Below, in pieces: positions 10,242-63,597 of a stretch of DNA of 64,000 nt. The notes below the pieces were generated by a model, which saw nothing but the letters and a program-made list of their open reading frames with translations, had not been told where the DNA came from and ran no database searches. Origin of the DNA: Nitrospirales bacterium (GTDB lineage Bacteria > Nitrospirota > Nitrospiria > Nitrospirales > UBA8639). How positions within the stretch are numbered: the first letter of the stretch is position 1; the number at the start of each line of letters is the position of its first letter. The translations under genes were made by a program, and so were the position numbers. Where the stretch lies: assembly GCA_022825885.1 (NCBI GenBank), contig JAJDVY010000033.1:10067-74066 (forward strand). Reading direction: 5' to 3'.

Positions 10242-10326
10242 TTCCGTTTTTGGGGAGCGTTATTGAAAACATTTGTATAATTTGTTAACTTGATGGCAAG
10301 GTAATGGCTGATGCTGTAGAGATGAG

Positions 10327-45162: not shown

Positions 45163-45262
45163 TCCGGAGCTTTGCACGCCAAGGACGCTGGTTCCCCGGT
45201 CGGAGCCGGTCCTTGCTTTGACCTGAACGCGTTCTTTGGTTATCTCATGATGTAAAGAATAT

Positions 45263-45291
45263 TTGACTTATAGTAAACTATAAAATAGCAT
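45263..45291 (+). promoter_or_regulatory. Candidate promoter with embedded palindromic operator upstream of porin-modABC
   Basis: TTGACT (45263-45268), a 17-nt spacer, then TAGCAT (45286-45291). The spacer contains the palindrome TTATAG-TAAA-CTATAA (45268-45283). The ATG at 45299 follows 8 nt later, with no SD. Confidence 0.4.
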
Positions 45292-45298
45292 CATTTTT

Positions 45299-46762
45299 AT
45301 GGTCTTGAGCTTTGGAAAGACGTGCCGGGCTTTTGCATGGATTGGCGGTTTGGTTTTGTGTGCCTGGAGCAGTATGGCATCCGCCTCCATGGAGGACTCT
45401 CACCGAACGGCGGGCGGGTTGCTCGCACGGGCTTCGAGTGTGCAGGTAACGGAGCCCGCGGATGCCGTCCTCATTCAACCCAGGGAATGGAAATGGAATC
45501 GGTACCTGAAGGCCGCCCTGCGTTTGCCGGATTGGCTGGATCTTGGACTCGAACACCGGACGCGTTTTGAAACCTATGATCATCCATGGCGACGCAGCCA
45601 ACCTGCCGGTCAAACGGACTCTCAGATTCAACAGCGGTCCCGTATCCGGTTGGGTCTGAACGGGGAGTACGTCAAGTTTTTGTTTGAAGGACAGGATGCC
45701 AGGGTCCACCTCGACGGCGTTGAGAGCTACGTCACCACGGCCATCAGGAATGAAATGGACGTGTTGCAGCTCATGGCGTCTATCACGTTGAACAACGTGT
45801 TGGGAACCGGTCTTCGTACGGACCTGCACGTTGGACGGCTGACGATGGACTTCGGACGGGGCCGGCTGATCATCCGGAACGACTATCGGAATACATCGAA
45901 TGCGTTTGACGGGGCGCATTGGCAATTGGGACGGGAAAAGAGTTGGCGCATCCGCCTGTTTCTGGTTGAACCCGTCCTGCGGGACGTCGTCCAACCTGAC
46001 GAACAGTCCCAACGCAGCGTCTTTTGGGGCACCTCCCTTGAAACCAATGACACGTCGCCGATGCGCCTCAACGTTTACTATTTCGGATTGAATGACCAAC
46101 GGAGCGTCAACGTCGACCGCCACAGAACGTTTTCGACTTTCGGAACGCGCCTCTATGATGAGCCGGAAACGGGAAGAATCGATTATGAAATCGAGAGCGT
46201 CTGGCAAACGGGGAAAAGGGGCACGATCAATCACGTTGCCCATTTCCAGCATCTTGATATTGGTTACACCCTGGATCTCCCGTGGTCGCCCCGATTCCTG
46301 GTTCATTACGACTACGCCAGCGGGGACCGGAACGCGCGGGACAGCCAGGATTCGGCTTTTGATACGCTGTTTGGCGCAAGACGTTTCGATTATATGCCCA
46401 CCGGCAATTTCGGACCGTTTTTTCGGTCGAATTTCAGTTCGCCGGGATGGCGGGTGATTGCGGTTCCGTGCCGGGGGTGCGAAGTGCAACTCAAACATCG
46501 GGTATGGTATCTCGCCACCGCGCGGGGCGCGTTTGGCCGTAACGGATTGCACGATCCCACCGGCGGGTCAGGGAATTTTCTCGGCCATGACCTTGAACTG
46601 CGAGCCCAGTGGAGAACGAACGACAACCTGGAATTCGAATTAGGCTACACGCATTGGTTTAAAGGCAGTTATTTCGACAGGCTTCCCGACTCTGCGGGGT
46701 TGCCTCCCGGCGGGAACAAGGATAGCGATTATTTCTACATACAGACGAAGTTCCGGCTGTAG
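45299..46762 (+). CDS. Outer-membrane beta-barrel porin (alginate-export-like family)
   Basis: A signal peptide ending ASA. It has alternating beta-strand-like sequence rich in Y/R/D/G/N and the C-terminal end ..YFYIQTKFRL. It is positioned upstream of modA. Confidence 0.5.
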   Translation: MVLSFGKTCRAFAWIGGLVLCAWSSMASASMEDSHRTAGGLLARASSVQVTEPADAVLIQPREWKWNRYLKAALRLPDWLDLGLEHRTRFETYDHPWRRSQPAGQTDSQIQQRSRIRLGLNGEYVKFLFEGQDARVHLDGVESYVTTAIRNEMDVLQLMASITLNNVLGTGLRTDLHVGRLTMDFGRGRLIIRNDYRNTSNAFDGAHWQLGREKSWRIRLFLVEPVLRDVVQPDEQSQRSVFWGTSLETNDTSPMRLNVYYFGLNDQRSVNVDRHRTFSTFGTRLYDEPETGRIDYEIESVWQTGKRGTINHVAHFQHLDIGYTLDLPWSPRFLVHYDYASGDRNARDSQDSAFDTLFGARRFDYMPTGNFGPFFRSNFSSPGWRVIAVPCRGCEVQLKHRVWYLATARGAFGRNGLHDPTGGSGNFLGHDLELRAQWRTNDNLEFELGYTHWFKGSYFDRLPDSAGLPPGGNKDSDYFYIQTKFRL

Positions 46763-46852
46763 GGATTGATAGGCCATGGGAAAGAACGGTGGGGAAAGGG
46801 TTGCGGCGAGGGGAAAGAAACCGTGTTTGCAGGCCCGGACGGTGCGCATGCC

Positions 46853-47614
46853 ATGATCGCCAGACTTCATCGTTTGCTGTTCCTTCTGTTCTTGACGATT
46901 TGTCCTGCAACCGGTGCCGCCGAAGAAGTACGCGTGGCCGTCGCAGCCAATTTTCTCGTGACGCTCAATGAAATTGCGACCAATTTTGAACGAGACACGG
47001 GGCACACTGCCGTTGTCAGTTCGGGATCAAGCGGCAAACTCTATGCGCAGATCAGAAACGGCGCCCCGTTCGACGTGTTTTTTTCCGCCGACGTGATGCG
47101 TCCGAAGTTGCTGGAAGAAGAAGGATTCGCGGTTCAGGGGAGCCGGTTTGCGTACGCCGTGGGACGGCTCACGTTGTGGAGCCGCGCTTCCACCCTGATC
47201 GAAGGGAATGGAGCATCCATGCTGTTGAGCGATGACGTCGAGTACGTGGCCATTGCGAATCCCAAAACTGCGCCTTACGGTGTCGCCGCCAAGGAAGCCT
47301 TGCAGTCACTGGGATTTTGGGAACGGGTGCAGGGCCGGTTGGTCCGGGGAGAAAATATCGGGCAAACCTTCCACTTTGTGTTTTCGAAGAATGCCCAACT
47401 GGGATTCGTCGCCCTGTCACAGGTATTGGACCCCAAAGTCAATGGGGCCGGAAGCCGATGGGACGTGCCGACGCATTTGTATGTTCCGATCCGGCAACAA
47501 GCGGTCCTGTTGCGCGCCGGTCAACGTCATGAAGTCGCACGCGCGTTCCTGGACTACGTGAAAGGAGCCAAGTCCCGTGGCGTCATTGAACGATTCGGTT
47601 ATGGCTTGGAGTGA
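46853..47614 (+). CDS. modA: Molybdate ABC transporter substrate-binding protein
   Basis: Start refined to ATG 46853, giving a signal peptide. Pattern ..VRVAVAANF...L..I...FE..TGH.V..S.GSSG.LY.QI.NGAPFDVF.SAD.. Confidence 0.9.
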   Translation: MIARLHRLLFLLFLTICPATGAAEEVRVAVAANFLVTLNEIATNFERDTGHTAVVSSGSSGKLYAQIRNGAPFDVFFSADVMRPKLLEEEGFAVQGSRFAYAVGRLTLWSRASTLIEGNGASMLLSDDVEYVAIANPKTAPYGVAAKEALQSLGFWERVQGRLVRGENIGQTFHFVFSKNAQLGFVALSQVLDPKVNGAGSRWDVPTHLYVPIRQQAVLLRAGQRHEVARAFLDYVKGAKSRGVIERFGYGLE

Positions 47615-47635
47615 TCGAGACCCGGGAGTCAAAGG

Positions 47636-48319
47636 ATGAGCATCCCGGAAATGGATTGGACCCCGTTGTGGCTGACCATGCAACTGGCAGGGGTGACCGT
47701 TGTGGTGTTGTTGCTGGTCGGTACCCCAATGGCATGGTGGTTGGCCTTCACGCGTTCGCGGTTCAGGACGCTGGTAGAGGCCATCGTGGCACTGCCCATT
47801 GTTCTGCCGCCAACCGTTCTCGGATTTTATCTGTTGGTCGCGCTTGGACCCCATGGCTTGATTGGCGGTCCCTGGAAGGACCTGACCGGATCGGCACTCT
47901 CGTTCACGTTTACGGGGTTGGTGATTGCCTCGACGTTCTATTCGCTTCCGTTTGTCGTTCAACCCCTGCATGGCGCATTCGAGGCCGTCGGCAAAAAGCC
48001 TTTGGAAGCCGCCTGGTCTCTCGGAGCCTCAAGACTTGACGCCTTTTTTACCGTGGCGTCGCCCATGGCGGTTCGAGGATACTTGAGCGCCGTTGTCCTG
48101 GGTTTTGCTCATACGCTTGGCGAGTTCGGCGTCGTGCTGATGGTTGGCGGAAATATCCCCGGGGTGACTAAAGTCCTCTCCATTGCCATCTATGATCACG
48201 TCGAGGTGCTTGAATATACCCAAGCCCATTTTCTTTCGGCGATGCTCCTTGCATTCAGTTTTCTCATTCTTGCGATCGTCTATACGGTCAACCGGCGTTT
48301 GCCCATTCACGTCTCATGA
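47636..48319 (+). CDS. modB: Molybdate ABC transporter permease
   Basis: Multi-pass membrane protein with an EAA-like loop (..LEAAWSLGASRLDAFFTV..). Confidence 0.9.
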   Translation: MSIPEMDWTPLWLTMQLAGVTVVVLLLVGTPMAWWLAFTRSRFRTLVEAIVALPIVLPPTVLGFYLLVALGPHGLIGGPWKDLTGSALSFTFTGLVIASTFYSLPFVVQPLHGAFEAVGKKPLEAAWSLGASRLDAFFTVASPMAVRGYLSAVVLGFAHTLGEFGVVLMVGGNIPGVTKVLSIAIYDHVEVLEYTQAHFLSAMLLAFSFLILAIVYTVNRRLPIHVS

Positions 48320-49398
48320 GTCAACTTGACGCGCGTTTCCACATCGACTATCCGGGGTTTCGTTTTGACGTGGCGTGTAGGGTCCCGCTTGACGGGCTGA
48401 TTGCCGTGTTTGGATCGTCCGGGAGCGGCAAGACCACGCTGTTGAGGTGTATCGCCGGCTTAACCCGGGCTTCTTCGGGGTTTCTTCAATTCGACGAGGC
48501 TGTTTGGCAGGACGACGCTCGCGGGGTTTTTCTGCCGGTTGAGCGGCGACGGGTGGGAGTCGTGTTTCAAGAAGCGCGACTGTTTCCCCACCTGACCGTC
48601 ACGCAAAACCTCACGTATGGGATGAAGCGCAGCAGCCCATCTTCGCGGCGCATCGAATTTGATCACGTCAGCGCGTTGTTGCGACTCGAGCCTCTCTTTC
48701 AGCGCCGGGTGTCTCACTTGTCCGGTGGTGAACAGCAACGAGTGGCAATAGGAAGAGCCTTGTTACGCAATCCGCAGCTCTTGCTGATGGATGAGCCCTT
48801 GGCCTCACTTGACCGGCAGCGAAAAAAAGAAATCGTTCCCTTCCTTCAGCAACTCAACCGGGAATTCCGCATCCCGGTCCTGTACGTCAGCCACGATCTT
48901 CACGAAGTTTTGCAGCTTGCCAATCACATGGTCCTGTTAAAAGAGGGGAGCGTGGCGGCGACCGGACCGATTCAGGACGTCTTTGCCCGATTGGACTTGC
49001 CGGAGTTGGTGGAATCGAACGCGGTCGGAGCTATTCTTGAAACGCGGATTGTCGAGCATGAACCGCATTTCGGGCTGACACGGGTTGAATTTTTGGGGCA
49101 ATCCCTTTTTCTCCCTCAACAGGCCCTTCCGCCCGGTGCGCCGTTGAGGGTGCAAATCCTGTCGCGTGACGTGAGCTTGACCGTCGGCGCTCCTCTTGCG
49201 GCCAGCAGCGCGTTGAATGCGTTGGAGGCGACGATTACCGAGGTCAGCGAATCACCGGGAGATCCTTACGCCGTCGAAGTGAAGCTCGACGTGGGTTCTC
49301 CGTTATTGGCCATGATTACGAGAAAATCGTTTCATCAACTTCGGCTGAAACCCGGCCAACAAGTCCATGCCTCTTTCAAGGCCGTGGCATTAAACTAG
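48316..49398 (+). CDS. modC: Molybdenum ABC transporter ATP-binding protein
   Basis: Walker A GSSGSGKTT, signature LSGGEQQRV, Walker B LLLMDEP, and a C-terminal Mop/TOBE-like domain. A 4-nt overlap links it to modB. Confidence 0.92.
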   Translation: MSQLDARFHIDYPGFRFDVACRVPLDGLIAVFGSSGSGKTTLLRCIAGLTRASSGFLQFDEAVWQDDARGVFLPVERRRVGVVFQEARLFPHLTVTQNLTYGMKRSSPSSRRIEFDHVSALLRLEPLFQRRVSHLSGGEQQRVAIGRALLRNPQLLLMDEPLASLDRQRKKEIVPFLQQLNREFRIPVLYVSHDLHEVLQLANHMVLLKEGSVAATGPIQDVFARLDLPELVESNAVGAILETRIVEHEPHFGLTRVEFLGQSLFLPQQALPPGAPLRVQILSRDVSLTVGAPLAASSALNALEATITEVSESPGDPYAVEVKLDVGSPLLAMITRKSFHQLRLKPGQQVHASFKAVALN

Positions 49399-49429
49399 AC
49401 GACGCGTCCCGGTCCACGTCTGCCTGCGG

Positions 49430-49795
49430 CTATTCGTTCTTCTTGGCCGGCGGCACACAGTGTTTTCCGTCAAACTCGGGACAGGCTGAATCACCGCTCG
49501 CCAATTTCCATAACTTGATAAGCGGCGGATTGGGTTTGCCTTGAAAGACAACGACAACGTCGATCAGTCCGCCGACGGGCAACTTTACAATATGCGGCAG
49601 AGCCGCCTCGCCGGCTTTGAGCCAGAGAATACCGCTCCCGCTGTTGATGAGGATAAAGCCTTTATCCGGAACCACGCGAATGATCGGACTGTAAAAACTG
49701 CCTTCTTTGCCGGGTTCATCGGTCAATGCCCAACCGGGCGTGGTCATCCAGATGACAAGAAAGAGAAGGAGGATGAAGGTAAAAGGACGCAACAT
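49430..49795 (-). CDS. Hypothetical small secreted protein
   Basis: 121 aa with a signal-like N-terminus (MLRPFTFILLLFLVIWMTTPGWA). No family recognised. Confidence 0.45.
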   Translation of the reverse strand: MLRPFTFILLLFLVIWMTTPGWALTDEPGKEGSFYSPIIRVVPDKGFILINSGSGILWLKAGEAALPHIVKLPVGGLIDVVVVFQGKPNPPLIKLWKLASGDSACPEFDGKHCVPPAKKNE

Positions 49796-49884
49796 GATGA
49801 ATCTCCTTGTCAGAAGGGAGAAATATTTTTTCGCATTATGGCAACATGGGGAAGGGATGTCTATAACGGCGTTACAGACCGTGG

Positions 49885-50391
49885 TTATCGGCGTTCGACG
49901 GGAACTTCGGTAGCCGTCGAATGCTGGATCCGATACGCGCGGATGATGGGATTCATCTTGTCTTGGAGGGAAATGATGACGTGGACGGGTTCGGGAATAT
50001 TGAGTTTTTCCCTGTAGCTCTCAAATTCCATGGCGATAGTAATATCCGTAGTGGATGGACGGGCAGGGCTGAACGTATGCGAATGGTAAAAGGCCTTTAG
50101 CGTCAGGCCTTTTTGACGAATGTCTTTTTGCGCTTGTGACATTTCCTGCGCATCCATCTGGAAGGCGATATCGGCGCGTTCTTCGGGAGAAAGTTGTGTC
50201 AGGTCGGACAGCTTGGCCTGGTCGAAACGGGCCAATTCAGCGTCACTCATCTTGGCCAGGATGTTGGTAATCCGGTAATGCTCGGTCATGACGGTGTCCC
50301 GGCCGGCCAAAATTCCGCAACATTCATGAGGGTCCAGGAGCCGCGCGTGCTCGATCATGTCTTCCCAAATCTCTGAAGGAATCGAAAGCAT
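49885..50391 (-). CDS. JAMM/MPN+ metalloprotease (Mec+/HcyD-like)
   Basis: It contains PHECCGIL (the catalytic E) and FYHSHTFSPARPSTTD, which is H-x-H-x7-S-x2-D. ATG at 50391, with an alternative TTG at 50400. It is the last gene of the sulfur-carrier operon. Confidence 0.8.
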   Translation of the reverse strand: MLSIPSEIWEDMIEHARLLDPHECCGILAGRDTVMTEHYRITNILAKMSDAELARFDQAKLSDLTQLSPEERADIAFQMDAQEMSQAQKDIRQKGLTLKAFYHSHTFSPARPSTTDITIAMEFESYREKLNIPEPVHVIISLQDKMNPIIRAYRIQHSTATEVPVERR

Positions 50392-50474
50392 GACGATCAA
50401 CGGCGGTCAGCGCGTTTGGGGTTTTCCTGAAACCGGGCCGCGGACAATCCCTGGCCGGGCTCTCTCCATTGACG

Positions 50475-51275
50475 TTACACGCTGCACGAGACGTGGTGCT
50501 CTTCCAGGGTGGTGATTGTCGGGTTGGCGCTGCAGAGTGGACAGCGGGGATCCTTGGGGCGCCTGACGATACGGAACTTCATTTCGAGCGCATCGTAGAT
50601 CAGTAAACGGTCAGCGAGTGTGTCCCCTATCTCCAGGATTTCTTTTATGGCTTCATTGGCCTGTAGAATACCGATTGTGCCCGCGAGGACGCCCAATACT
50701 CCGGCTTCCTGGCAACTGGGGACCAATCCGGCAGGCGGCGGTTCAGGGTAGAGACAACGATAGCAGGGGTAGCCCTTCTGCGGTTTGATTGTGGCAAGCT
50801 GCCCTTCAAAACGAAAGATGCTCCCCGAGATCAAGGTTTTTTTCGCAAAGTAGCAGGCGTCACTCACCAGGAACCGGGTGCCGAAGTTATCGGACCCGTC
50901 CAGCACAAGGTCGTAGTTCGGCAACAACGTCATAATATTTTCGGCGCTGATGTGCTCCTGATACGTGTGCACCAGGACGTCGGGGTTCAACGCCTCCAGG
51001 AGCCGGCGGCCGGATTCGACCTTGGGGACTCCCACGTGAGGCGTGGTGTGGAGGACTTGCCGTTGCAGGTTCGACAGATCGACCACGTCGCCGTCAATCA
51101 ACCCGATCGTGCCGATACCCGCTGCTCCCAGGTACAAGGCGATTGGCGAACCCAGGCCTCCGGCCCCAACCACGAGGATTTTGGCCCGGTTCAGTTTTTG
51201 TTGACCCTTGCCGCCGACCTCCTCGAGGATGATCTGCCGGCTATAGCGTTCGATTTGGTCTTCGGTAAAATCCAC
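50475..51275 (-). CDS. ThiF/MoeB-type E1-like adenylyltransferase (copy 1; no rhodanese domain)
   Basis: RYSRQIILEEVGGKGQQKL, VVGAGGLGSP, and two CxxC pairs (CYRC, CPLC). 266 aa. Confidence 0.88.
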   Translation of the reverse strand: MDFTEDQIERYSRQIILEEVGGKGQQKLNRAKILVVGAGGLGSPIALYLGAAGIGTIGLIDGDVVDLSNLQRQVLHTTPHVGVPKVESGRRLLEALNPDVLVHTYQEHISAENIMTLLPNYDLVLDGSDNFGTRFLVSDACYFAKKTLISGSIFRFEGQLATIKPQKGYPCYRCLYPEPPPAGLVPSCQEAGVLGVLAGTIGILQANEAIKEILEIGDTLADRLLIYDALEMKFRIVRRPKDPRCPLCSANPTITTLEEHHVSCSV

Positions 51276-51284
51276 GTCCGGCCT

Positions 51285-51524
51285 CTATTCCACCACGTTG
51301 AGTTCAATCGGGTCCACGAGCACGCCCTTCTCCCGCAACCCTCCAATCGCGCGTTCGATTTCTTCGGTTTCGCCTGAGAATTCCACGTCCATCCAGCCGG
51401 TGGTTGCACGGACGTCGGCCCGGCGGATGCTGGTGACGACCTGGTATTCATGCCCGATCTGATAAATGACGGGTTCGGGAATTTTTTCTTCCGGAAACCG
51501 AATGTGAAATCGCAGTTTAGTCAT
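51285..51524 (-). CDS. Stand-alone NIL domain protein
   Basis: ..KLRFHIRFPEEKIPEPVIYQIGHEYQVVTSIRRADVRATTGWMDVEFSGETEEIERAIGGLREKGVLVD.. follows the NIL (MetN C-terminal-like) pattern. ATG at 51524 or GTG at 51533; both overlap the upstream stop. Confidence 0.55.
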   Translation of the reverse strand: MTKLRFHIRFPEEKIPEPVIYQIGHEYQVVTSIRRADVRATTGWMDVEFSGETEEIERAIGGLREKGVLVDPIELNVVE

Positions 51525-51798
51525 GGCTGCCACCGGCGATAGCGGGAACGATGGACACCTCGTCGCCGTCTTTGACGGGCGTGTCTTTGCCCGTCAGGAA
51601 CCGGATGTCTTCTTCGTTCAGGTACACGTTGATAAACCGCCGAATCTCTCCCTGTTCGTCGCAGATCCGGTCTTTCAATCCCGGATGCGTTGCGTTCAAT
51701 TGCTCGATCAATTCGCCGATGCTGGCGCCGGTTCCTTCCACTTCACTCTTGCCTCCGGTCATCGGCCGGAGGGGAGTGGGTATGCGTACGGTGATCAT
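51517..51798 (-). CDS. MoaD/ThiS-family ubiquitin-like sulfur carrier with a GG-SHD C-terminus
   Basis: 93 aa ending ..DGDEVSIVPAIAGG-SHD*. Its start overlaps the stop of the ThrC-like gene (ATGA, 51795-51798). Confidence 0.7.
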   Translation of the reverse strand: MITVRIPTPLRPMTGGKSEVEGTGASIGELIEQLNATHPGLKDRICDEQGEIRRFINVYLNEEDIRFLTGKDTPVKDGDEVSIVPAIAGGSHD

Positions 51799-53033
51799 GC
51801 CGCCCCCTGTTGTCCAAACGTTTGTTCAAATTTAACCAGGCTCGGTGGAATGCGGAACGGACGTCCGACTGAATCCACAACGGCCTCCTGGGTTTTTAAT
51901 CCGTTGCCGGTGATATAGGCGACGGTCACGTCGTGTTTCTTGATGGCGCCTTGTTTGACGAGCTTGCGAAGGGTTCCGATGGTCACACCTCCCGCTGTTT
52001 CCGCAAAAATACCTTCCGTTTGAGCCAGTAGCTTAATACCTTCTATCACTTCGTCGTCCGTGACCGCATCCATGGCCCCTCCGCTTTCCGCGACGGTTTT
52101 CAGGGCATAGTAGCCGTCCGCGGGATTGCCGATGGCCAGGGATTTGGCAATGGTATTGGGTTTGACCGGTTTAAAGAAGTCGCGTCCGTCTTTAAACGCC
52201 GTGGCGATCGGGGAGCACCCTTCGGCCTGGGCGCCATTGACTTTCGTGGCCACGTCCTTGAGAAGGCCGATTTTTTTGAATTCATTGAGGCCTTTCCAGA
52301 TTTTGGTCAGTAACGATCCCGACGCCATGGGGACAACGACCTGATCGGGCGCTCGCCACCCCAGTTGTTCCGCGACTTCAAAGGCCAAGGTCTTCGACCC
52401 TTCGGCGTAATACGGACGGATATTCACGTTGACGAAGGCCCATCGTCGTTCGCCGGCAATCTCGCTGCACAAACGGTTGACGTCGTCGTAGTTGCCTTCG
52501 ATTTCCACGACTTTCGGCCGGTAGATCAGGTTGCCGAGGACTTTGGCCGCTTCCAGGTCGCCGGGGATGAACACGTAACATTGCATGCCGGCCTGTGCCG
52601 CGTGCGCGGCCACGGAATTAGCCAAATTGCCGGTGGAGGCACAGGCTGCGGTTTCATACCCCAGTTCCCTGGCGCGCGTCAGAGCAACGGCCACGACCCG
52701 GTCCTTAAACGACAGGGTCGGCTGGTTGACGCAGTCGTTCTTAATATACAGTTCATCGAGGCCCAAAAAGGCTCCCAGATTTTTGGCGTGAACGAGCGGC
52801 GTCATGCCGGCGTGCAGACCGATCGTCGGGCTGCCTTCGATCGGGAGCAATTCCTTGTACCGCCACAGCGACTTGGGACCGGCTTCGATCGTGGCTCGTG
52901 ACATCACCTCCTTGATTTCATCGTAGCTATATTTGACTTCCAGGGGTCCAAAGCACAGTTCACAGACGTGAAAGGCTTCCGTGGGATATTCCTTACTGCA
53001 TTCCCGGCAAATGAGGGCTTTCATCTTTGCCAT
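51795..53033 (-). CDS. thrC: Threonine synthase-like PLP enzyme with N-terminal zinc ribbon
   Basis: Start refined to ATG 53033 after GGAGG. It has CRECSKEY....CELC (a Zn ribbon), the ..PTLSFKDRV.. PLP-lysine block, and the Thr-synthase fold pattern. Confidence 0.75.
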   Translation of the reverse strand: MAKMKALICRECSKEYPTEAFHVCELCFGPLEVKYSYDEIKEVMSRATIEAGPKSLWRYKELLPIEGSPTIGLHAGMTPLVHAKNLGAFLGLDELYIKNDCVNQPTLSFKDRVVAVALTRARELGYETAACASTGNLANSVAAHAAQAGMQCYVFIPGDLEAAKVLGNLIYRPKVVEIEGNYDDVNRLCSEIAGERRWAFVNVNIRPYYAEGSKTLAFEVAEQLGWRAPDQVVVPMASGSLLTKIWKGLNEFKKIGLLKDVATKVNGAQAEGCSPIATAFKDGRDFFKPVKPNTIAKSLAIGNPADGYYALKTVAESGGAMDAVTDDEVIEGIKLLAQTEGIFAETAGGVTIGTLRKLVKQGAIKKHDVTVAYITGNGLKTQEAVVDSVGRPFRIPPSLVKFEQTFGQQGAA

Positions 53034-53065
53034 GGTTGAACCTCCTTCCGCATCCGGATCGTCAA

Positions 53066-53893
53066 CTAGGAAGTCCCGAGCACCCCGGGCACTTGCAGTT
53101 GGCACGCTTCCTGTTCGTGTTCAAACAGTTCGGTAATGTCCGGATGGTCTCCGCACAAGGGACACCTGGGATTTCGTTTCGTCTTGATTTCACGAAATGC
53201 GGTTTTTCGAGCATCAAAGTCGAGGATCCGGTCGGTGAGCGGATTCCCAATCCCAAGAATCAATTTCAGCGCCTCCGTGGCCTGAATGGTCCCGATAATG
53301 CCGGCCACGACGCCGATGATGCCGGCTTCCTGGCAATTGGGCACCAGCCCGGGTGGCGGTGGATGATTGAAAATGCACCGATAGCAAGCAGATTGCCCGG
53401 GCACGATGGAGAACACCCGGCCCTCGAACCGGAGGATTCCGCCGTGGACAAGGGGTTTGCCCGCAAAATAACACGTATCATTGATGAGAAACTTGGCCGG
53501 AAACGTATCCACGCCATCAATGACCACGTCATAGGGCGCGATGTAATCCATCGCATTGGAGGCGGTGAATCGATCTTCGTAGGTTTCAACGTTCACGTCG
53601 GGATTCAGAAGAAAGATTTTTTCTTTCGCCGATTGTACCTTGGACCGTCCGACGTCGGGTGTATGGTGCAAGACTTGTCGTTGAAGATTGGACCGGTCGA
53701 CGACGTCGCTGTCTATCAAGCCAATCGTCCCGATACCGGCTGCGGCCAAATACAAGGCGACGGGGGAACCGAGCCCACCCGCTCCGACGACAAACACTTT
53801 CGCCCGGGCAATTTTTTTCTGGCCCTTTCCCCCGACCTCCGGTAACAGGATGTGCCGGCTATATCGGGTGATTTGTTCGTCCGAGAAACTCAT
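53066..53893 (-). CDS. ThiF/MoeB-type E1-like adenylyltransferase (copy 2; no rhodanese domain)
   Basis: RYSRHILLPEVGGKGQKKI, VVGAGGLGSP, CYRC and CPLC. It is a clear paralog of 50475..51275. Confidence 0.88.
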   Translation of the reverse strand: MSFSDEQITRYSRHILLPEVGGKGQKKIARAKVFVVGAGGLGSPVALYLAAAGIGTIGLIDSDVVDRSNLQRQVLHHTPDVGRSKVQSAKEKIFLLNPDVNVETYEDRFTASNAMDYIAPYDVVIDGVDTFPAKFLINDTCYFAGKPLVHGGILRFEGRVFSIVPGQSACYRCIFNHPPPPGLVPNCQEAGIIGVVAGIIGTIQATEALKLILGIGNPLTDRILDFDARKTAFREIKTKRNPRCPLCGDHPDITELFEHEQEACQLQVPGVLGTS

Positions 53894-53907
53894 CTTCCTT
53901 GATTCAA

Positions 53908-54837
53908 TTAGATATTAAAATATTTTTCGATACTCAGATACCGTTCACCCGTATCGCACAACACTGTGACGACGTGTTGGTCGGGGTTCAGGTCGTTTGC
54001 GACTTGCTGGGCCGCAAAGACGTTGGCTCCTGCGGAAATCCCTACGAGCAGCCCTTCTTTTTTCGCCAGCAGCTTCGTGGTTTGATAGGCTTGGTCGTCG
54101 GTGACTCGAATAATGTCATCAATGATAGAACGATTCAGGACTTTTGGCACAAAACCGGCGCCGATGCCCTGTATCTTATGCGGTCCGGCTGCTCCTCCCG
54201 AGAGTACCGGGGACCCCGCCGGTTCCACGGCGACGATTTTCGTATTCGGCGCACGTTCTTTCATGACCTCTCCGCAACCGGTAATGGTTCCGCCCGTGCC
54301 GACCGCCGCAACAAACGCATCGATTTTACCGTCCATGGCGTCCCAGATCTCGACCGCCGTCGTTGTCCGGTGAATGGCCGGGTTGGCCGGGTTGGAAAAC
54401 TGGTCAGGCATGAAATATTCCGGGTTTTGGGCAATAATGTTTTCGGCTTCTCGGATCGACCCCTGCATGCCTTCCCAAGCCGGGGTCAAAATCAATTGTG
54501 CGCCATAGGACGACAACAAGCTTGCCCGTTCGAGGCTCATGCTTTCCGGCATGACCAGAATCAATTTATACCCCCGAACCGCGGCGATTAACGCCAGTCC
54601 GATTCCCGTGTTCCCGCTTGTCGGTTCGACAATGGTGCCGCCGGGTTTGAGTGTGCCGTTACGTTCCGCCTCGTCGATCATATTGAGGCAGATCCGGTCC
54701 TTGACGCTCCCGCCGGGGTTGGCGAACTCCACCTTCCCGAAAATCGTGGCGCCGCCTTCCCCGGAAAGGCGATTCAACCGAACCAATGGCGTGCGACCGA
54801 TTCCCTCCGTAATTTTTGATAAATATCGGGTCGTCAC
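53908..54837 (-). CDS. cysM: Cysteine synthase (CysK/CysM family PLP enzyme)
   Basis: ..IGRTPLVRLNRL.., ..NPGGSVKDR.. (PLP lysine), ..TSGNTG.. and ..GTGGTITG.. GTG start in a GTGA overlap with the carrier gene stop. Confidence 0.88.
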   Translation of the reverse strand: MTTRYLSKITEGIGRTPLVRLNRLSGEGGATIFGKVEFANPGGSVKDRICLNMIDEAERNGTLKPGGTIVEPTSGNTGIGLALIAAVRGYKLILVMPESMSLERASLLSSYGAQLILTPAWEGMQGSIREAENIIAQNPEYFMPDQFSNPANPAIHRTTTAVEIWDAMDGKIDAFVAAVGTGGTITGCGEVMKERAPNTKIVAVEPAGSPVLSGGAAGPHKIQGIGAGFVPKVLNRSIIDDIIRVTDDQAYQTTKLLAKKEGLLVGISAGANVFAAQQVANDLNPDQHVVTVLCDTGERYLSIEKYFNI

Positions 54838-55034
54838 GCCCCTCCACCCATGTAGAACAGAAATTCCAACGTATCGCCGTCTTGGACGTTCGTGGTTTCG
54901 AGCCGGTCTCGTTCGACGATTTGAGTATTGAGTTCAACGGCCACCATATGCGGGTCGATATCTTTTTGTTTCAGGACGTCCATAATGGTATCGGCCTGCA
55001 TTTCTTCGGGTTTTCCATTAATGGTGATTTGCAT
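54834..55034 (-). CDS. ThiS-family ubiquitin-like sulfur carrier with a GGG-A C-terminus
   Basis: Start refined to ATG 55034 after GGTGGAG. The 66-aa product is MQITINGKPE...VQDGDTLEFLFYMGGGA*. Confidence 0.7.
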   Translation of the reverse strand: MQITINGKPEEMQADTIMDVLKQKDIDPHMVAVELNTQIVERDRLETTNVQDGDTLEFLFYMGGGA

Positions 55035-55124
55035 GACGTTCTCCACCGTATGGGTATGACTATAAACATGTAAGGATAACAAACTTGTAACAATTTCGTC
55101 AAGAAAATGTGAAAATACAAGGGG

Positions 55125-55853
55125 TTATGAAATCAGTTGAGGCACCAGGTCTTTGGCGTGACCTTGGATGGCTACGTCCACGAGGCTGGAATGAGGCGTC
55201 GGATCGAGATTCAATTCCACCACGAAGGCGCCATTGTCTTTGGCAATGGGCCCGAAAGACGCGGCCGGGTAGACCACGCCTGACGTTCCGATAATCAGGA
55301 GCACGTCGCACTTGCGCAACGCGTCGAAACTTTTTTGCAAATCTTCAGGATCCAGGGATTCCCCAAACCAGACGATGTGAGGCCGAAGCAGCCCCCGGCA
55401 GGTTGCACATTCCGGCAGGATAGCGATGGGAACGTCGCGATTGACGGTAATCCGTCCGCATTGCGTGCAGCGCACTTTCCAAATATTGCCGTGAATTTCC
55501 GACAGGCGTTGAGAGCCGGCCAACGGATGAAGTCCATCGACGTTTTGCGTAATAAGCCAATATTGATCAATCCTGTGCTCCAGTTCCACCAGGGCGGCAT
55601 GGGCCGGGTTGGGGCGTTTGGTTGCAATGAGTTCGCGGCGCCAGTTGTACCATTCCCACACGAGTTTGGGGTTGCGGGCAAAAGCCTCAGGCGAGGCCAG
55701 CTCTTCGGGCCGGTGATCCTTCCACATCCCATCGCCCCCTCGAAACGTCGGCACCCCGCTGTCCGCGGAAATGCCGGCTCCGGTCAGGACCGTCACCGCG
55801 GTGGCGGAGGCAAGTCTCGCCTTCAGCTCCTGAATCGGGGAGGAAGCGTTCAT
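55125..55853 (-). CDS. cobB: NAD-dependent protein deacylase (Sir2 family)
   Basis: GAGISADSGVPTFRG, zinc Cys pairs CTQCG..CATC, and GTSGVVYPAA. Confidence 0.9.
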   Translation of the reverse strand: MNASSPIQELKARLASATAVTVLTGAGISADSGVPTFRGGDGMWKDHRPEELASPEAFARNPKLVWEWYNWRRELIATKRPNPAHAALVELEHRIDQYWLITQNVDGLHPLAGSQRLSEIHGNIWKVRCTQCGRITVNRDVPIAILPECATCRGLLRPHIVWFGESLDPEDLQKSFDALRKCDVLLIIGTSGVVYPAASFGPIAKDNGAFVVELNLDPTPHSSLVDVAIQGHAKDLVPQLIS

Positions 55854-55949
55854 GCTCGAGTAAAACCGTTGATGAGGAGAGGCTATAAATGGCGTTTCAG
55901 CCGCTCCGTATCTTCTGCATCCATAGCTTCTCCGACTCCTGGAGAATCG

Positions 55950-56735
55950 TCAGATTTCGCGGAGGTATTGCTCAAGTAAGGCGTGGTAGGCGCGGATGCG
56001 TTTCACGTACCGGACGGGCTCCCAACCGCGAGCATATCCGTATTGCAACGTTTCGTAGTAGGATTCTTGGGTCAAGAGGGGGAGCGTGGTTTTGAGATCA
56101 TCCCATGAATTGGGATTCTTCCCCACTCGGCGCGCGAGGAGTTGTGCGTCCTTGACGTGTCCCATGCCCACGTTATAGGCCGCCAAGGCAATCGCAATGC
56201 GATCCGTCTTTCCGATGTGACGGGGAAGTCGTCTCTCCAGATTCCTGAAATACCGGGCTCCACCTACGATACTTTTGGTGGGGTCTTCCCGATTTTGGAT
56301 ACCCAGGGACGAAGCCGTGTCGCGGGTCAGCATCATGATGCCTCGAACGCCGGTTGGGCTGACGGCGTGCCGGTCCCAACGTGATTCCTGATACGCTTGG
56401 GCTGCGAGTAACGTCCAGGAAATATTGTAGGCCTTTGCGACGCCTTCAAATTGCCACCGGTACTGCGGCAAGCGAGTTTCAATATGGTGCCGGAAGCGGA
56501 TTCTTTCCCACAAGGGGAGACCGGATGTGACCGGAGCGGGTGCGTGTTGAATGGCTTTGAGTTCGGAATGAGAGGGATTGAATGGAGGAGCCGATGCGTC
56601 AACGGGAATGAGCAGCCATGCCCCTGCCATCACGCTTAGGAGTACTGCAGACGCAACCAAACTGTTTCCAATGGCCGCCGCCGTCTGCAAAATCCCTGAC
56701 TTCTCCGAACGGAGTTTCGATAAAAATGCAATCAT
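55950..56735 (-). CDS. Lytic transglycosylase (SLT domain), membrane-anchored
   Basis: Start refined to ATG 56735, giving an N-terminal TM segment. The SLT motif is AQAYQESRWDRHAVSPTGVRGIMMLT. Confidence 0.8.
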   Translation of the reverse strand: MIAFLSKLRSEKSGILQTAAAIGNSLVASAVLLSVMAGAWLLIPVDASAPPFNPSHSELKAIQHAPAPVTSGLPLWERIRFRHHIETRLPQYRWQFEGVAKAYNISWTLLAAQAYQESRWDRHAVSPTGVRGIMMLTRDTASSLGIQNREDPTKSIVGGARYFRNLERRLPRHIGKTDRIAIALAAYNVGMGHVKDAQLLARRVGKNPNSWDDLKTTLPLLTQESYYETLQYGYARGWEPVRYVKRIRAYHALLEQYLREI

Positions 56736-57050
56736 AAGAACGGTTCGTTGCTCAAGGAGGCTTGAGCCCCAAGACTGCTTCAAACCCTCATCCTTGCACG
56801 GAGCGGGTCTCGTTCGCAAGTCCCTTTTTTTTCGACGTGAGCGGTTTGGGGGATATCGGATACACTCAGCCGGAACGCGTTCGGCATCATCCATCGTGAT
56901 CCCTTGAAGTTGGCTGCAACTGACGCGATTGGCCGAGCGTTGGTGTTCTTCTCCAGGAACGTGTTAGTCTATGCGGGACTCAGGATAAGCATGAACAAGC
57001 CTGATTACCGACAGATTCCGAATGGGTTGATGAAGAAAGGATGAGGAACG

Positions 57051-57476
57051 ATGGTCGAACGAACGTTAGCGATTATTAAACCTGACGCCGTGAAAAAGCG
57101 CGTGATTGGCGACGTTATTCAGCGATATGAAACAGCGGGGCTTCACCCGGTTGCCATGAAAATGATGAGTTTGTCCCAACCAATCGCCGAAGGATTTTAT
57201 GCCGTACACCGTGAACGTCCGTTTTTTCATGAACTTACCGCGTTCATGTCCTCGGGGCCTTCAGTTATCCTTGTCCTCAAAGGGGAAAACGCAATCCAGA
57301 CAAACAGGGATCTCATGGGAGCAACGGATCCCGGCAAGGCGGAGCCTGGAACGATTCGGGCAGCTCATGGGGATTCAATCGAAGCCAATGCCGTTCACGG
57401 GTCTGATTCTCCTGAAACAGCCAAGTTCGAAATAGGATATTTTTTCCCTGGCATGGATTTGCAAGCTGAAAATTGA
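57051..57476 (+). CDS. ndk: Nucleoside-diphosphate kinase
   Basis: [12 protein letters not shown].., and ..NAVHGSDS.. carrying the active-site His. Confidence 0.95.
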
Positions 57477-57497
57477 ACACGGCCGCGCCGTCTCAAA

Positions 57498-57525
57498 GTA
57501 GGGAACAACGATCGTTGGTCTCTAC
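57498..57525. repeat. 28-nt palindrome (REP family C), copy 2 (imperfect)
   Basis: GTAGGGAACAACGATCGTTGGTCTCTAC differs at 2 positions from 31789-31816. It lies just downstream of ndk. Confidence 0.8.
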
Positions 57526-62846: not shown

Positions 62847-62914
62847 CTTTTTCTTTCAAGAAAGCTGTGAAGAAGCCTCTTGCGGTATATCTCGCCTTGA
62901 GATATGCTGATCTC

Positions 62915-63202
62915 GTGCACATCATTTCGCGCAAAGCTCTTCAGGCGTTTTGGGTGCAGCATCCCGACAGTAAGGAGCCTCTGGGCCGCTGGTTCAAGAT
63001 TATGCGGCAAACGCGATTTCGCAGTTTTACGGCACTACGCCGTACGTTTCCTTCGGCTGATCAAGTCGGAGAGTATGTCGTGTTCAATATTGCCGGGAAC
63101 AAGTACCGTCTGATTGCATCCCTGCACTTCAATCGGGGAAAGGTGTATATTCGCCACGTCCTGACGCACCAAGCTTATGACCGCGGAGGATGGATGACAT
63201 GA
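62915..63202 (+). CDS. higB: HigB-family type II toxin (RelE-fold mRNA interferase)
   Basis: Start refined to GTG 62915. VHIISRKALQAFWVQHPDSKEPLGRWFKIMRQTRFRSFTALRRTFPSADQVGEYVVFNIAGNKYRLIASLHFNRGKVYIRHVLTHQAYD closely follows the HigB_toxin family pattern. Confidence 0.85.
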   Translation: MHIISRKALQAFWVQHPDSKEPLGRWFKIMRQTRFRSFTALRRTFPSADQVGEYVVFNIAGNKYRLIASLHFNRGKVYIRHVLTHQAYDRGGWMT

Positions 63203-63597
63203 ATGCCATAAGTCCACAGATTCAGCGATCCTGGACCCACGTGAGCGACTTGTTCAAGATTCGCAACGAACAGGACTATGATGCGGCAGTGGAGCACCTC
63301 AATACCCTCCTTGATGAGGTGGGCACCGATGAGCGGCATCCGCTCTATTCTCTGCTGGATACGCTTGGCACCGTGCTTCACGCCTGGGAAGAACAACATC
63401 ACGCGATGCCGGAATGCGGGGGAGCGGATGTGCTGCGATTCTTCATGGCGGAGCACAATCTGACCCAGTCGGACTTGCCAGAGGTCGGATCCCAAGGGGT
63501 CGTTTCGGAGATTCTGCGCGGCAAACGGGACCTGAATGTCAGGCAGATCCGCGCTTTGTCAAAGCGCTTCGGGGTCTCCCCTTCGGTCTTCGTATAG
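63190..63597 (+). CDS. higA: HigA-family antitoxin (HTH, XRE-type)
   Basis: It overlaps the higB stop. The C-terminal HTH is ..FFMAEHNLTQSDLPEVGSQGVVSEILRGKRDLNVRQIRALSKRFGVSPSVF. Confidence 0.85.
   Translation: MDDMNAISPQIQRSWTHVSDLFKIRNEQDYDAAVEHLNTLLDEVGTDERHPLYSLLDTLGTVLHAWEEQHHAMPECGGADVLRFFMAEHNLTQSDLPEVGSQGVVSEILRGKRDLNVRQIRALSKRFGVSPSVFV

Follow-up and report, generated by a model that had tools for sequence, protein, structure and literature searches.

A conserved Nitrospirota operon that probably serves protein-thiocarboxylate-dependent synthesis of cysteine and homocysteine

The 64,000-nucleotide stretch of DNA analysed here (the window), from a Nitrospirales bacterium, carries on its minus strand, at positions 49885-55034, eight tightly coupled genes that we read, with a probability of about 0.7, as a conserved operon whose products make both cysteine and homocysteine by protein-thiocarboxylate-dependent routes. 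In order, they encode a ThiS-like sulfur carrier, a CysK-type PLP cysteine synthase, an E1-like adenylyltransferase (E1a), a ThrC-like PLP enzyme, a carrier of the CysO/MetO family, a stand-alone NIL-domain protein, a second E1-like adenylyltransferase (E1b), and a JAMM/MPN+ zinc metalloprotease. A preliminary description of the sequence had proposed two carrier modules that share this protease within one transcription unit. Synteny, gene fusions, SAM riboswitches upstream of homologues, and C-terminal extensions of the carriers support the two modules and their common protease, while co-transcription is a prediction from the layout of the genes.

The ThiS-like gene (54834-55034, minus strand as for all genes of the operon; 66 aa) has a GGTGGAG Shine-Dalgarno sequence 6 nt upstream and shares a GTGA overlap (54834-54837) with the cysteine synthase gene (53908-54837; 309 aa). 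E1a (53066-53893; 275 aa) follows after 14 nt and the ThrC-like gene (51795-53033; 412 aa) after a further 32 nt. For the latter, the ATG at 53033, preceded by GGAAGGAGG, is preferred, and a 436-aa ORF opening at a GTG was rejected as an over-extension. An ATGA overlap (51795-51798) leads into the CysO/MetO-like carrier gene (51517-51798; 93 aa), which overlaps by 8 nt (ATGACTAA, 51517-51524) with the NIL gene (51285-51524, alternative GTG start at 51533; 79 aa). E1b (50475-51275; 266 aa) begins 9 nt later. The JAMM gene (49885-50391; 168 aa from its ATG, the length given by independent gene calls, or 171 aa from a TTG at 50400) is separated from E1b by 83 or 74 nt depending on its start. All ORFs, overlaps, and gaps listed in the preliminary description are thus in place, and independent gene calls on metagenome contigs recovered this set of eight genes. 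Profile-HMM searches, which it had proposed as a check, matched all the Pfam families concerned: ThiS for both carriers (E-values of 1e-09 for the ThiS-like and 3.5e-19 for the CysO/MetO-like protein), PALP for CysK (7e-81) and the ThrC-like enzyme (2e-67), ThiF for E1a (8e-84) and E1b (5e-78), NIL (3.5e-13), and Prok-JAB for the protease (3e-17).

Upstream of the ThiS-like gene lies a putative sigma-70 promoter (55073-55103, minus strand) with a -35 element CTTGAC and an extended -10 element TTTGTTATCCT, detected in a promoter pattern scan as TTGACG-18-TATCCT at 55102-55073. The CTTGAC and the T-G-x-T of the -10 element are invariant in nine aligned Nitrospirota upstream regions, though the upstream gene differs. 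No convincing terminator was found inside the operon, and no riboswitch or other Rfam element across 49000-57500. From this we infer that the eight genes form one transcription unit driven by the conserved promoter. The preliminary description stopped short of a conserved possible ninth gene after the protease, which encodes a secreted protein (49430-49795, minus strand; 121 aa) without Pfam or PADLOC match. Its homologues, 40-80% identical, lie 3' of JAB on the same strand in six loci (L005-L009 and L012), whose outer flanks differ. Its membership in the operon is uncertain because a pattern scan placed a promoter-like site (49863-49835) in the 89-nt gap that separates it from JAB. No canonical cysK, metX/metY, thrC, or thiS-thiG was found elsewhere within the 64-kb window.

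Comparison of gene neighbourhoods covered homologous loci (designated below by L numbers), and 69 related loci were scored for the neighbours of the ThrC-like gene. The full eight-gene order is kept across the Nitrospiraceae (L005-L009, L011, and L012), with JAB starting about 14 nt after E1b in L007, L009, and L012. The Ca. Manganitrophaceae locus L013 has the first seven genes in order and no JAB match within about 450 bases 3' of E1b. Because eight further Nitrospirota genomes keep the order despite protein identities down to 46-85% and changed flanks, it is more than a chance arrangement. The combined architecture with NIL had not been recognised earlier as a characterised system; it is not peculiar to this genome, since the cassette recurs across many phyla, where it mostly has a single E1 and frequently contains fusions of ThiS to CysK (ThiS~CysK) or of carrier to NIL.

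The AlphaFold2 model of the NIL protein (pLDDT 72.6) has a beta-alpha-beta-beta-alpha-beta topology, and the best 11 PDB matches are all MetN C2/NIL domains (TM 0.62-0.79), followed by ligand-binding regulatory domains of the ACT type. The NIL domain has been described as methionine-binding and regulatory (PMC12068725). Since its close structural relatives are only the methionine-binding C2 domains of MetN, the modelled protein is probably a feedback methionine sensor for the homocysteine module. NIL adjoins the ThrC-like/carrier pair in 25 of the 69 loci, and across many phyla it either stands alongside the carrier or is joined to it in one protein; the window protein reads S-I-R where most family members read N-I-R. 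Alternatively, NIL could be a structural partner of the carrier, either as a cap or chaperone of the Gly-Gly tail or as an adaptor to the ThrC-like enzyme or E1, and no methionine sensor. This would suit the six loci in which carrier and NIL form an in-frame fusion, with NIL starting three to about twenty residues past the Gly-Gly of the carrier, and the 8-nt overlap of the two window ORFs, which resembles a split fusion. Furthermore, locus L077 has both NIL and a SAM riboswitch, so that NIL is not simply a substitute for the riboswitch. A purely structural role nevertheless seems rather unlikely, given the structural matches, five Chloroflexota loci in which NIL is a separate gene between enzyme and carrier, and the fact that NIL is dispensable in cyanobacteria and absent from L085, the only actinobacterial locus examined.

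In the cysteine module, the carrier ends in FYMGGG-A, one residue past the Gly-Gly, and all Nitrospirota orthologues end in MGGG plus one or two variable residues, unlike solved ThiS proteins such as its best solved relative, 2k5p, which ends in FMGGG. The cysteine synthase, with its PLP lysine at K46 and a TSGNTG loop at residue 73, resembles classical CysKs: it passes the cysK model TIGR01139 (452 bits against a cutoff of 351), its best PDB matches are the CysK enzymes 2egu and 2q3b, and the CysM models stay below their cutoffs. The earlier label of CysK/M-type can therefore be narrowed to CysK-type, so that the cysteine half does not duplicate the mycobacterial system, and free sulfide could still be its sulfur source. 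Stand-alone CysKs, for example that of Thermotoga, are as close to the CysK domain of ThiS~CysK fusions as other fusions are, and the ordinary-looking window enzyme may simply use free sulfide. CysK active sites are known to take up the C-terminus of serine acetyltransferase and of other partner proteins, which makes insertion of a carrier tail plausible.

It could be argued that only the second half of the operon is carrier-dependent, the ThiS-like protein and E1a being the ThiS and ThiF of thiamine synthesis and CysK a normal sulfide-dependent O-acetylserine sulfhydrylase, placed beside them because the sulfur of the ThiS thiocarboxylate ultimately comes from cysteine. Associations of ThiS with cysteine synthase have been noted and explained in this manner (Iyer et al. 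2006), the carrier passes the thiS equivalog TIGR01683 (63.7 bits against 37.45), and genes for ThiE, ThiI, and TenA occur elsewhere in the window. However, E1a falls below the thiF equivalog cutoff (TIGR02356, 255.6 against 275.25), thiG is absent from the window, and the carrier is orthologous to the N-terminal domain of in-frame ThiS~CysK fusions. These make up about 90 of the best 120 matches (clusters at 90% identity), with an invariant Gly-Gly at the junction, and such a fused carrier is blocked until a protease cuts it. The fusions lie inside sulfate-assimilation clusters, next to JAB, sulfite reductase, PAPS reductase, TusA, and a MetM-like module rather than thiamine genes, and in none of the five loci inspected (L070, L086, L088, L089, and L090) does thiG or thiH stand beside them. 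Locus L090 follows the window gene order except that a single protein (P0481) joins ThiS to CysK, and its CysK domain is 76% identical to the window CysK; a JAB-ThiS-CysK order recurs in Actinomycetota and Planctomycetia. A thiamine role for the first half is thus doubtful.

The homocysteine module comprises the ThrC-like enzyme and the second carrier, adjacent in 65 of the 69 loci across many phyla. The enzyme scores 305 bits against the thrC model TIGR00260 (cutoff 167) and has the PLP motif SFKDR at residue 108, but solved ThrC structures align with it only from residue 46-57 or so, and its N-terminus carries a four-cysteine zinc ribbon (C9, C12, C24, and C27). Six homologues (L060, L063, L077, L083, L084, and L085), 54-63% identical to the window protein, are immediately preceded by SAM-I riboswitches (65-92 bits), indicating that this "threonine synthase" serves methionine synthesis. 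Canonical ThrC paralogues, which have no zinc ribbon and show SFKDRGM in place of the SFKDRVV of the ThrC-like family, coexist with it in the same operon (L056, L058, and L062) or nearby (L047 and L049). On these grounds, we propose that the ThrC-like protein is a MetM-type homocysteine synthase using O-phosphohomoserine. The MetM/MetO pathway published in 2024 (Hasebe 2024) employs a ThrC homologue of this kind together with a carrier, Mec, and MoeZ, and homocysteine synthase activity has been demonstrated for the Streptomyces homologue. The window enzyme and carrier match this route, although orthology to the S. albulus proteins is indirect; the homocysteine role that the preliminary description gave to the enzyme is thus supported, the pathway itself having escaped it. 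Its "MoaD-like" label for the second carrier, which ends in AIAGG-SHD, has to be given up in favour of the CysO/MetO family: among solved structures, the carrier scores highest against 4n6e_B and M. tuberculosis CysO (3dwg_C), with 86-87 bits as opposed to 17-41 bits for MoaD proteins, and the moaD model TIGR01682 gives 22 bits (cutoff 66). The C-termini of its orthologues vary from GG to GG plus 1-7 residues or fusion to NIL or E1.

That the ThrC-like gene encodes a genuine threonine synthase, with carrier and NIL serving, for example, molybdopterin synthesis beside the modABC genes directly downstream of the operon, would fit its thrC score and the name threonine synthase under which sources list it. 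Moreover, the Microcystis homologue, which reportedly shares 51.6% identity with MetM and whose neighbour shares 47% with MetO, is reported to act as threonine synthase and deaminase in vitro and to fall short of full MetM behaviour in vivo; a Microcystis homologue among the loci compared (L066) is 62% identical to the window protein. Against this stand the riboswitches, the near-universal pairing with the carrier, the coexisting canonical ThrC, the Streptomyces enzyme, the low MoaD score of the carrier together with the absence of MoaE, and a modABC neighbourhood kept in the closest relatives only, which together make this reading very improbable.

Both E1s are conserved, and neither has a rhodanese domain. 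E1a scores above the cutoff of the MoeB subfamily model NF004281 and carries GAGGLG at 37, CYRC at 170, PNCQEAG at 185, and CPLC at 244; E1b, 58% identical to it, has GAGGLG at 37, CYRC at 171, PSCQEAG at 186, and CPLC at 245. E1a forms a Nitrospirota clade of its own, while the E1b clade groups with the single E1s found 3' of carrier-NIL in other phyla. Neither in nor beside the window operon is a rhodanese domain, TusA, or sulfite reductase encoded. The protease, whose best solved relative is 2kks, has the intact E...HxH-x7-S-x2-D motif noted earlier (E23, H103-S-H105, S113, and D116). JAMM genes go together with carriers that are extended or fused: JAB is present in 7/7 loci with a fused carrier as against 5/57 with a carrier ending at GG, and both window carriers have residues after the Gly-Gly. 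A ubiquitin-like conjugation system, SAMPylation-like or an anti-phage module of the CBASS/Bil type, is scarcely credible, as the second carrier lies barely above the SAMP1 cutoff (63.6 bits against 60) but the E1s and JAB reach UbaA and desampylase below threshold (320-323 against 450 and 49.6 against 130 bits), the PADLOC E1-E2 and JAB models match in part, limited to the E1 Rossmann core (30-68 bits) with no E2 domain or effector, two PLP enzymes of amino-acid synthesis are interleaved with the carriers and fused to carriers in relatives, and the wider genomic context is sulfate assimilation.

Under the favoured reading of thiocarboxylate-dependent cysteine and homocysteine synthesis, one mRNA would start at the promoter upstream of the ThiS-like gene, with translation coupled through overlapping or close-set stop and start codons. 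The JAMM protease would expose the Gly-Gly by cutting Ala66 off the ThiS-like carrier and Ser-His-Asp off the CysO/MetO-like carrier. The E1s would then adenylate the carriers, E1a probably the ThiS-like and E1b the CysO/MetO-like one, and the acyl-adenylates would be converted to thiocarboxylates by sulfide or by a persulfide relay encoded elsewhere. The CysK-type enzyme would form aminoacrylate from O-acetylserine or O-phosphoserine, to be attacked by ThiS-COS-, and the MetM-type enzyme would activate O-phosphohomoserine for attack at C-gamma by the other thiocarboxylate. Once an S-to-N acyl shift had taken place, the JAMM protease would act again, hydrolysing the carrier-Cys and carrier-Hcy amides to release cysteine and homocysteine. 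NIL would most likely act as a sensor of methionine, or of a related end product, that restrains the homocysteine module, in place of the SAM riboswitch by which homologues in other phyla are controlled. The individual sulfur-carrier routes are known; the combined cassette, its cysteine half, and its NIL protein are not characterised, and the genes of this cassette are routinely mislabelled in many uncultured bacteria.

The eight minus-strand genes at 49885-55034 proved to be exactly as the preliminary description had set them out, and they encode, in order, a ThiS-like carrier, a CysK-type enzyme, an E1-like enzyme (E1a), a ThrC-like enzyme, a CysO/MetO-like carrier, a NIL protein, a second E1-like enzyme (E1b), and a JAMM/JAB protease. 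The tight junctions are likewise all present: a GTGA overlap (54834-54837) is followed by a 14-nt gap, a 32-nt gap, an ATGA overlap (51795-51798), an 8-nt overlap, ATGACTAA (51517-51524), and a 9-nt gap, and the gap before the JAB gene is 74 nt with a TTG start or 83 nt with an ATG start. When near-identical metagenome contigs were gene-called independently, the same eight products emerged (66, 309, 275, 412, 93, 79, 266, and 168 aa), and profile searches placed them in the Pfam families ThiS, PALP, ThiF, PALP, ThiS, NIL, ThiF, and Prok-JAB. Among related genomes, the complete ThiS-CysK-E1-ThrC-like-carrier-NIL-E1-JAB order recurs in the Nitrospiraceae loci L005-L009, L011, and L012, and genes one to seven recur in locus L013 from Ca. 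Manganitrophaceae, with protein identities across the conserved-order loci dropping to 46-85%. In all nine Nitrospirota loci compared, a -35 CTTGAC with an extended -10 stands unchanged some 50-60 nt before the ThiS-like start, and persists despite a differing upstream gene; a pattern scan places the window copy of this putative promoter at 55103-55073. Scanning the operon with its flanks against Rfam returned no RNA element (E up to 1), and no convincing internal terminator was seen within the operon. Given the kept gene order, the invariant promoter, and these two negative scans, co-transcription of the eight genes seems well supported. The larger gap before the JAB gene is lineage-specific, since JAB starts about 14 nt after E1b in L007, L009, and L012. 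A conserved 5'-UTR stretch (consensus AAATTCTTTAATCTCT), absent from the window, lies between the promoter and the ThiS-like start, about 25-45 nt from the latter, in one Nitrospiraceae subgroup (L007, L008, L009, L011, and L012), where it could be a regulatory site.

Several neighbouring genes can be set beside the operon. An ORF of 121 aa (49430-49795, minus strand) follows the JAMM gene on the same strand after a gap of 89 nt; it carries a signal peptide and the motifs SFYSPI and C-x-F-[DN]-G-x-x-C, and has no family match. Its position is kept in six Nitrospiraceae loci at 40-80% identity, with differing outer flanks. It could belong to the cluster as a ninth gene, or be served by a separate promoter-like site at 49863-49835. 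Further downstream on the opposite strand (44011-49398, plus) are encoded an HTH and PBP_like regulator, an outer-membrane protein of the Alginate_exp family, and, for molybdate uptake, a TOBE-domain ABC transporter of the ModA/ModB/ModC type. As only the closest relatives keep this neighbourhood, it probably has no connection with the operon. A putative HigB-toxin/HTH-antitoxin pair is found at the window edge (62867-63597, plus), as judged from the near-identical contigs L001 and L002.

The first homology searches gave Nitrospira-level relatives only (ThrC-like enzyme at least 94% and NIL protein at least 76% identical); broader homologues came from a representative-library search and a genome scan. 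The scan of the genome collection, made with an alignment of the family, yielded 80 loci from Nitrospirota, Cyanobacteria, Chloroflexota, Planctomycetota, Actinomycetota, Omnitrophota, and others. Among the 69 loci with enough downstream DNA, a carrier adjoins the ThrC-like enzyme in 65, and a NIL gene stands beside this pair in 25 of 69, from at least eight phyla. The NIL protein of the window (79 aa) matches PF09383 (49.6 bits, cutoff 24), and its AlphaFold2 model (pLDDT 72.6) has a beta-alpha-beta-beta-alpha-beta topology, for which the top eleven PDB matches are all MetN C2/NIL domains (TM 0.62-0.79), followed by ACT-type regulatory domains. In six loci (L015, L020, L073, L074, L076, and L080) the carrier and NIL are fused in frame in carrier ORFs of 169-188 aa, with three to about twenty residues between the Gly-Gly and the first NIL strand, and a JAB gene is present in all six of these complete cases; L016, whose ORF is cut by the contig end, is probably a further fusion. 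The 8-nt overlap of the window's carrier and NIL ORFs resembles a split fusion. NIL domains have been ascribed methionine binding and regulation of activity (PMC12068725), and are taken to act in this way in the methionine importer MetN and in MA1822, the NIL-ferredoxin subunit of aspartate-semialdehyde sulfurtransferase. The window protein shares fold, Pfam family, and a methionine-related setting with MA1822 and the MetN C2 domain; unlike them, it is a free protein, fused behind a carrier elsewhere, and carries no ATPase or ferredoxin domain. From the MetN C2-like fold of the model, the gene adjacency, the carrier fusions, and the methionine binding ascribed to NIL domains, it is proposed that NIL would partner the homocysteine module and regulate it in response to methionine. 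The main alternative is that NIL is purely a structural cap or adaptor.

The enzyme following the ThiS-like carrier had been described as a CysK/M-type cysteine synthase, of which the CysK part stands and the CysM part does not: it scores 452 bits with the cysK equivalog (cutoff 351) and 293-299 bits with CysM models (cutoffs 394-413), and its top PDB matches are CysK/OASS-A. On sequence alone, such a CysK-type enzyme could use free sulfide, and the cysteine half does not duplicate the CysO/CysM pair of mycobacteria. Its presumed carrier passes the thiamine ThiS model (63.7 vs 37.45), which favours a reading of this carrier and E1a as the ThiS/ThiF of thiamine synthesis, next to an ordinary CysK. 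That reading is weakened by several observations. The window carrier ends in GGG-A, and in all Nitrospirota orthologues the terminal MGGG is followed by one or two variable residues, so these carriers would need trimming. In locus L070, from an Actinomycetota MAG, ThiS and CysK form a single 372-aa ORF (6825-7943) preceded by a JAB gene, and the same locus has a 355-aa carrier~E1 fusion (9226-10293; the tilde denotes a single in-frame fusion protein). A search with the L070 ThiS~CysK protein gave about 90 fusion clusters among the top 120 matches, all with an invariant Gly-Gly and a variable linker at the junction. These fusions (367-390 aa; natural examples are proteins P0414-P0528) are widespread in Omnitrophota, Elusimicrobiota, Margulisbacteria, and others, where they are annotated merely as 'cysteine synthase A', and those examined lie inside sulfate-assimilation clusters, not with thiamine genes. 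The window's exact gene order is found in L090, with ThiS and CysK fused (7001-8110, P0481) and a CysK domain 76% identical to the window's. Also against a thiamine function, E1a scores 255.6 with TIGR02356 thiF, below the cutoff of 275.25, and the 64-kb window contains no thiG (nor canonical thrC, metX/metY, or cysE). Genes related to thiamine or thiolation do occur elsewhere in the window (14737-15399, 26017-27198, 27198-28115, and 30028-30696), encoding ThiE, a rhodanese-less ThiI, an adjacent thioredoxin-reductase-like flavoprotein, and TenA, with no thiG or thiS beside them.

A real partnership between ThiS-like carrier and CysK-type enzyme is thus indicated by the residues after MGGG, the ThiS~CysK fusions, and the fused copy in the window's own gene order. 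Serine acetyltransferase is one of the partner proteins whose C-terminal tails bind in CysK active sites, so insertion of a carrier tail into CysK would be mechanistically plausible. In other phyla, a larger conserved sulfur-assimilation supercluster was observed (L086-L089, e.g. L088 189-11840), typically ordered PAPS reductase, PHO4-type permease, JAB, sulfite reductase, ThiS~CysK, TusA, ThrC-like enzyme, carrier, E1, and NIL, with one E1 and with siroheme and tetrapyrrole genes also present. With TusA placed between the two modules, a persulfide could be relayed to the E1. Near the window's operon there is no gene for a rhodanese, TusA, or sulfite reductase.

In the homocysteine half, the ThrC-like and carrier genes adjoin through the ATGA overlap. 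This second carrier had been called MoaD-like; it is indeed a sulfur carrier, but its closest kin are not MoaD proteins. Its best solved relatives are M. tuberculosis CysO (3dwg_C) and 4n6e_B, at 86-87 bits, against 17-41 bits for MoaD proteins and 22 bits with the TIGR01682 moaD equivalog (cutoff 66). As for the enzyme, that it might be a genuine threonine synthase is suggested by its passing the TIGR00260 thrC model and by the threonine synthase and deaminase activity in vitro that is reported for a Microcystis member of the family. Other features weaken this identity. Six homologues with 54-63% identity to the window protein have a SAM-I riboswitch (RF00162) immediately upstream (L085 4878-4990, L083 4502-4620, L063 2545-2653, L060 7816-7926, L077 2900-3012, and L084 1739-1840), which marks the family as methionine-biosynthetic. 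A second ThrC continues the operon in L056, L058, and L062, and is found nearby in L047 and L049. These paralogues (355-366 aa) read NPTGSFKDRGMT where the window family has PTLSFKDRVV, that is, SFKDRG(M) against SFKDRVV. They also lack the N-terminal four-cysteine zinc ribbon of the window enzyme, which is absent from solved ThrCs as well; a search of the PDB found solely canonical ThrCs without an N-terminal domain, and no MetM-type structure. The order in these Thermodesulfovibrionia-type Nitrospirota is MetM-like enzyme, carrier, NIL, and canonical ThrC (L056 98-2964, L058 8001-10899, and L062 190-3247), so that both O-phosphohomoserine-consuming enzymes are in one operon, at a plant-like Thr/Met branch point. 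Finally, there is a Streptomyces precedent: in S. albulus, a ThrC homologue reportedly makes homocysteine from O-phosphohomoserine and the thiocarboxylate of MetO, with Mec and MoeZ (Hasebe et al. 2024), and "MetM ... is often misannotated" as threonine synthase. The window protein shares 54-55% identity with a Micromonosporaceae homologue under riboswitch control, and 62% with the Microcystis member of the family, itself reported as 51.6% identical to MetM. The ThrC-like/carrier pair thus appears to match the MetM/MetO pathway, through an orthology to S. albulus MetM that is indirect.

Three further identities were rejected: a Moco MoaD beside modABC, given the moaD score, the lack of MoaE in the cluster, and the presence of modABC only in the closest relatives; archaeal SAMP/UbaA/desampylase conjugation, given UbaA and desampylase models below their cutoffs; and CBASS Cap2/Cap3-type defence, given only partial PADLOC matches and no E2.

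Both E1s (275 and 266 aa), which would activate the carriers, retain the nucleotide loop (GxGGxG), a pair of CxxC zinc motifs, and the cysteine of P-[NS]-C-QEAG. They consist of a ThiF domain only and, unlike M. tuberculosis MoeZ, have no rhodanese domain; the MoeZ model gives 307-312 bits (cutoff 647), with only its N-terminal 270 positions matched. E1a and E1b are 58% identical and split into two separate clades, each kept across Nitrospiraceae and Manganitrophaceae; they are old, maintained paralogues, a pattern consistent with one E1 per carrier. The E...HxH-x7-S-x2-D motif of the protease is intact, as first noted (E23, H103-x-H105, S113, and D116; Pfam Prok-JAB 3e-17). In the window, the Gly-Gly is followed by Ala66 in the ThiS-like carrier and by Ser-His-Asp in the CysO/MetO-like carrier. 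Across loci, a JAB gene accompanies 7 of 7 second carriers that form a fusion with NIL or E1, 4 of 12 with a short extension, and 5 of 57 ending exactly at Gly-Gly, a distribution that fits a role of JAB in carrier maturation. The ThiS~CysK and carrier~E1 fusions would all require cleavage after Gly-Gly. By analogy with Mec+ and HcyD, a second JAMM role may be the release of cysteine and homocysteine from carrier adducts.

Compared with known systems, the window operon resembles S. albulus MetM/MetO in that a ThrC-homologous PLP enzyme adjoins a CysO-like Gly-Gly carrier, a JAMM protease (Mec in S. albulus) and an E1 are available for carrier maturation and activation, and homologues of the enzyme are under SAM-riboswitch control. 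It differs in itself containing the E1 and the protease, in E1s devoid of MoeZ's rhodanese domain, in the addition of NIL, in the absence of a riboswitch, and in joining the homocysteine module to a cysteine module. With the M. tuberculosis CysO/CysM/Mec+/MoeZ system it would share, as proposed from the genes, attack of a carrier thiocarboxylate on a PLP-aminoacrylate and freeing of the amino acid by JAMM; the second carrier is nearest to CysO itself, and the cluster encodes a JAMM protease with an intact motif. Unlike in M. tuberculosis, this CysO-like carrier is paired with a ThrC-like enzyme and not with a cysteine synthase, and the synthase is CysK-type, not an O-phosphoserine-specific CysM, with a presumed carrier that is ThiS-like. 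The HcyS/HcyF/HcyD/MetY system of Wolinella succinogenes, said to have been described by Krishnamoorthy and Begley in 2011, reportedly combines a ThiS-like carrier, whose extra C-terminal residue is removed by a JAMM protease, with a rhodanese-less E1. The window has the same three components, including the residue after Gly-Gly, and relatives of its cassette are similarly embedded in sulfate-assimilation genes. By contrast with Wolinella, the operon has no MetY, its ThiS-like carrier is coupled (in relatives, fused) to a CysK-type enzyme, and its homocysteine enzyme is predicted to be a ThrC-like fold-type II protein where MetY is a fold-type I O-acetylhomoserine sulfhydrylase; no fold-type I enzyme of Cys/Met metabolism was found in the operon or the 64-kb window. 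Operons with a Ub-like carrier, E1, and JAB together with cysteine synthase or sulfur-assimilation genes were surveyed previously (Iyer, Burroughs and Aravind 2006, rows 4c-4e). The window operon resembles these JAB/E1/ThiS-MoaD neighbourhoods in those components, but the survey lists no ThrC-like enzymes, NIL proteins, or ThiS~CysK or carrier~NIL fusions.

A more far-reaching reading is that NIL is a sensor of the end product, methionine, built directly onto a Ub-like sulfur-carrier pathway, and that ordinary CysK-type synthases accept a ThiS-like protein thiocarboxylate; as a whole it is tentative, with a probability of roughly three in ten. Several phyla may translate NIL as a C-terminal extension of the carrier, with JAMM cutting after Gly-Gly, and such fusions would parallel ubiquitin-fusion precursors in bacterial metabolism. 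Methionine could then gate the maturation of the carrier and, through it, the flow of sulfur into homocysteine. The CysK-type synthases, for their part, would often be synthesised as ThiS~CysK pro-proteins. Each chemical idea has a precedent (CysO/CysM/Mec+, HcyS/HcyF/HcyD/MetY, and MetM/MetO), and the case for this conserved and widespread cassette is a comparative one throughout. Literature searches found no account of the combined cassette, with cysteine and homocysteine modules sharing a protease (and with duplicated E1s in Nitrospiria), of a CysK-type enzyme with a ThiS-type carrier as its coupled or fused partner, of NIL with sulfur carriers, whether as a recurrent or as a fused partner of MetO-like carriers, or of methionine synthesis in Nitrospira.

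The testable extensions to sulfur-carrier biology are a ThiS-type carrier delivering to a classical CysK, NIL regulating a carrier/MetM module, and carrier fusion precursors processed by JAMM. An RF00162 element upstream of 'threonine synthase' genes offers a simple marker for their re-annotation as MetM-type homocysteine synthases. Under their present names ("threonine synthase", "cysteine synthase A", "ThiS", "MoeB", and "NIL domain protein"), the genes lead metabolic reconstructions for Nitrospira and many uncultured phyla to miss a methionine, and possibly a cysteine, route, and these reconstructions may infer false auxotrophy or a duplicated thrC; the phyla affected include Omnitrophota, Elusimicrobiota, Margulisbacteria, Chloroflexota, and Planctomycetota. 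As has been argued for M. tuberculosis, nitrite oxidisers may by analogy benefit from a route in which reduced sulfur stays bound to protein inside an oxic cell. If the joint reading of NIL as a sensor and of ThiS-like carriers as partners of CysK is true, it would amount to a widespread, unrecognised route to cysteine and methionine in uncultured phyla.
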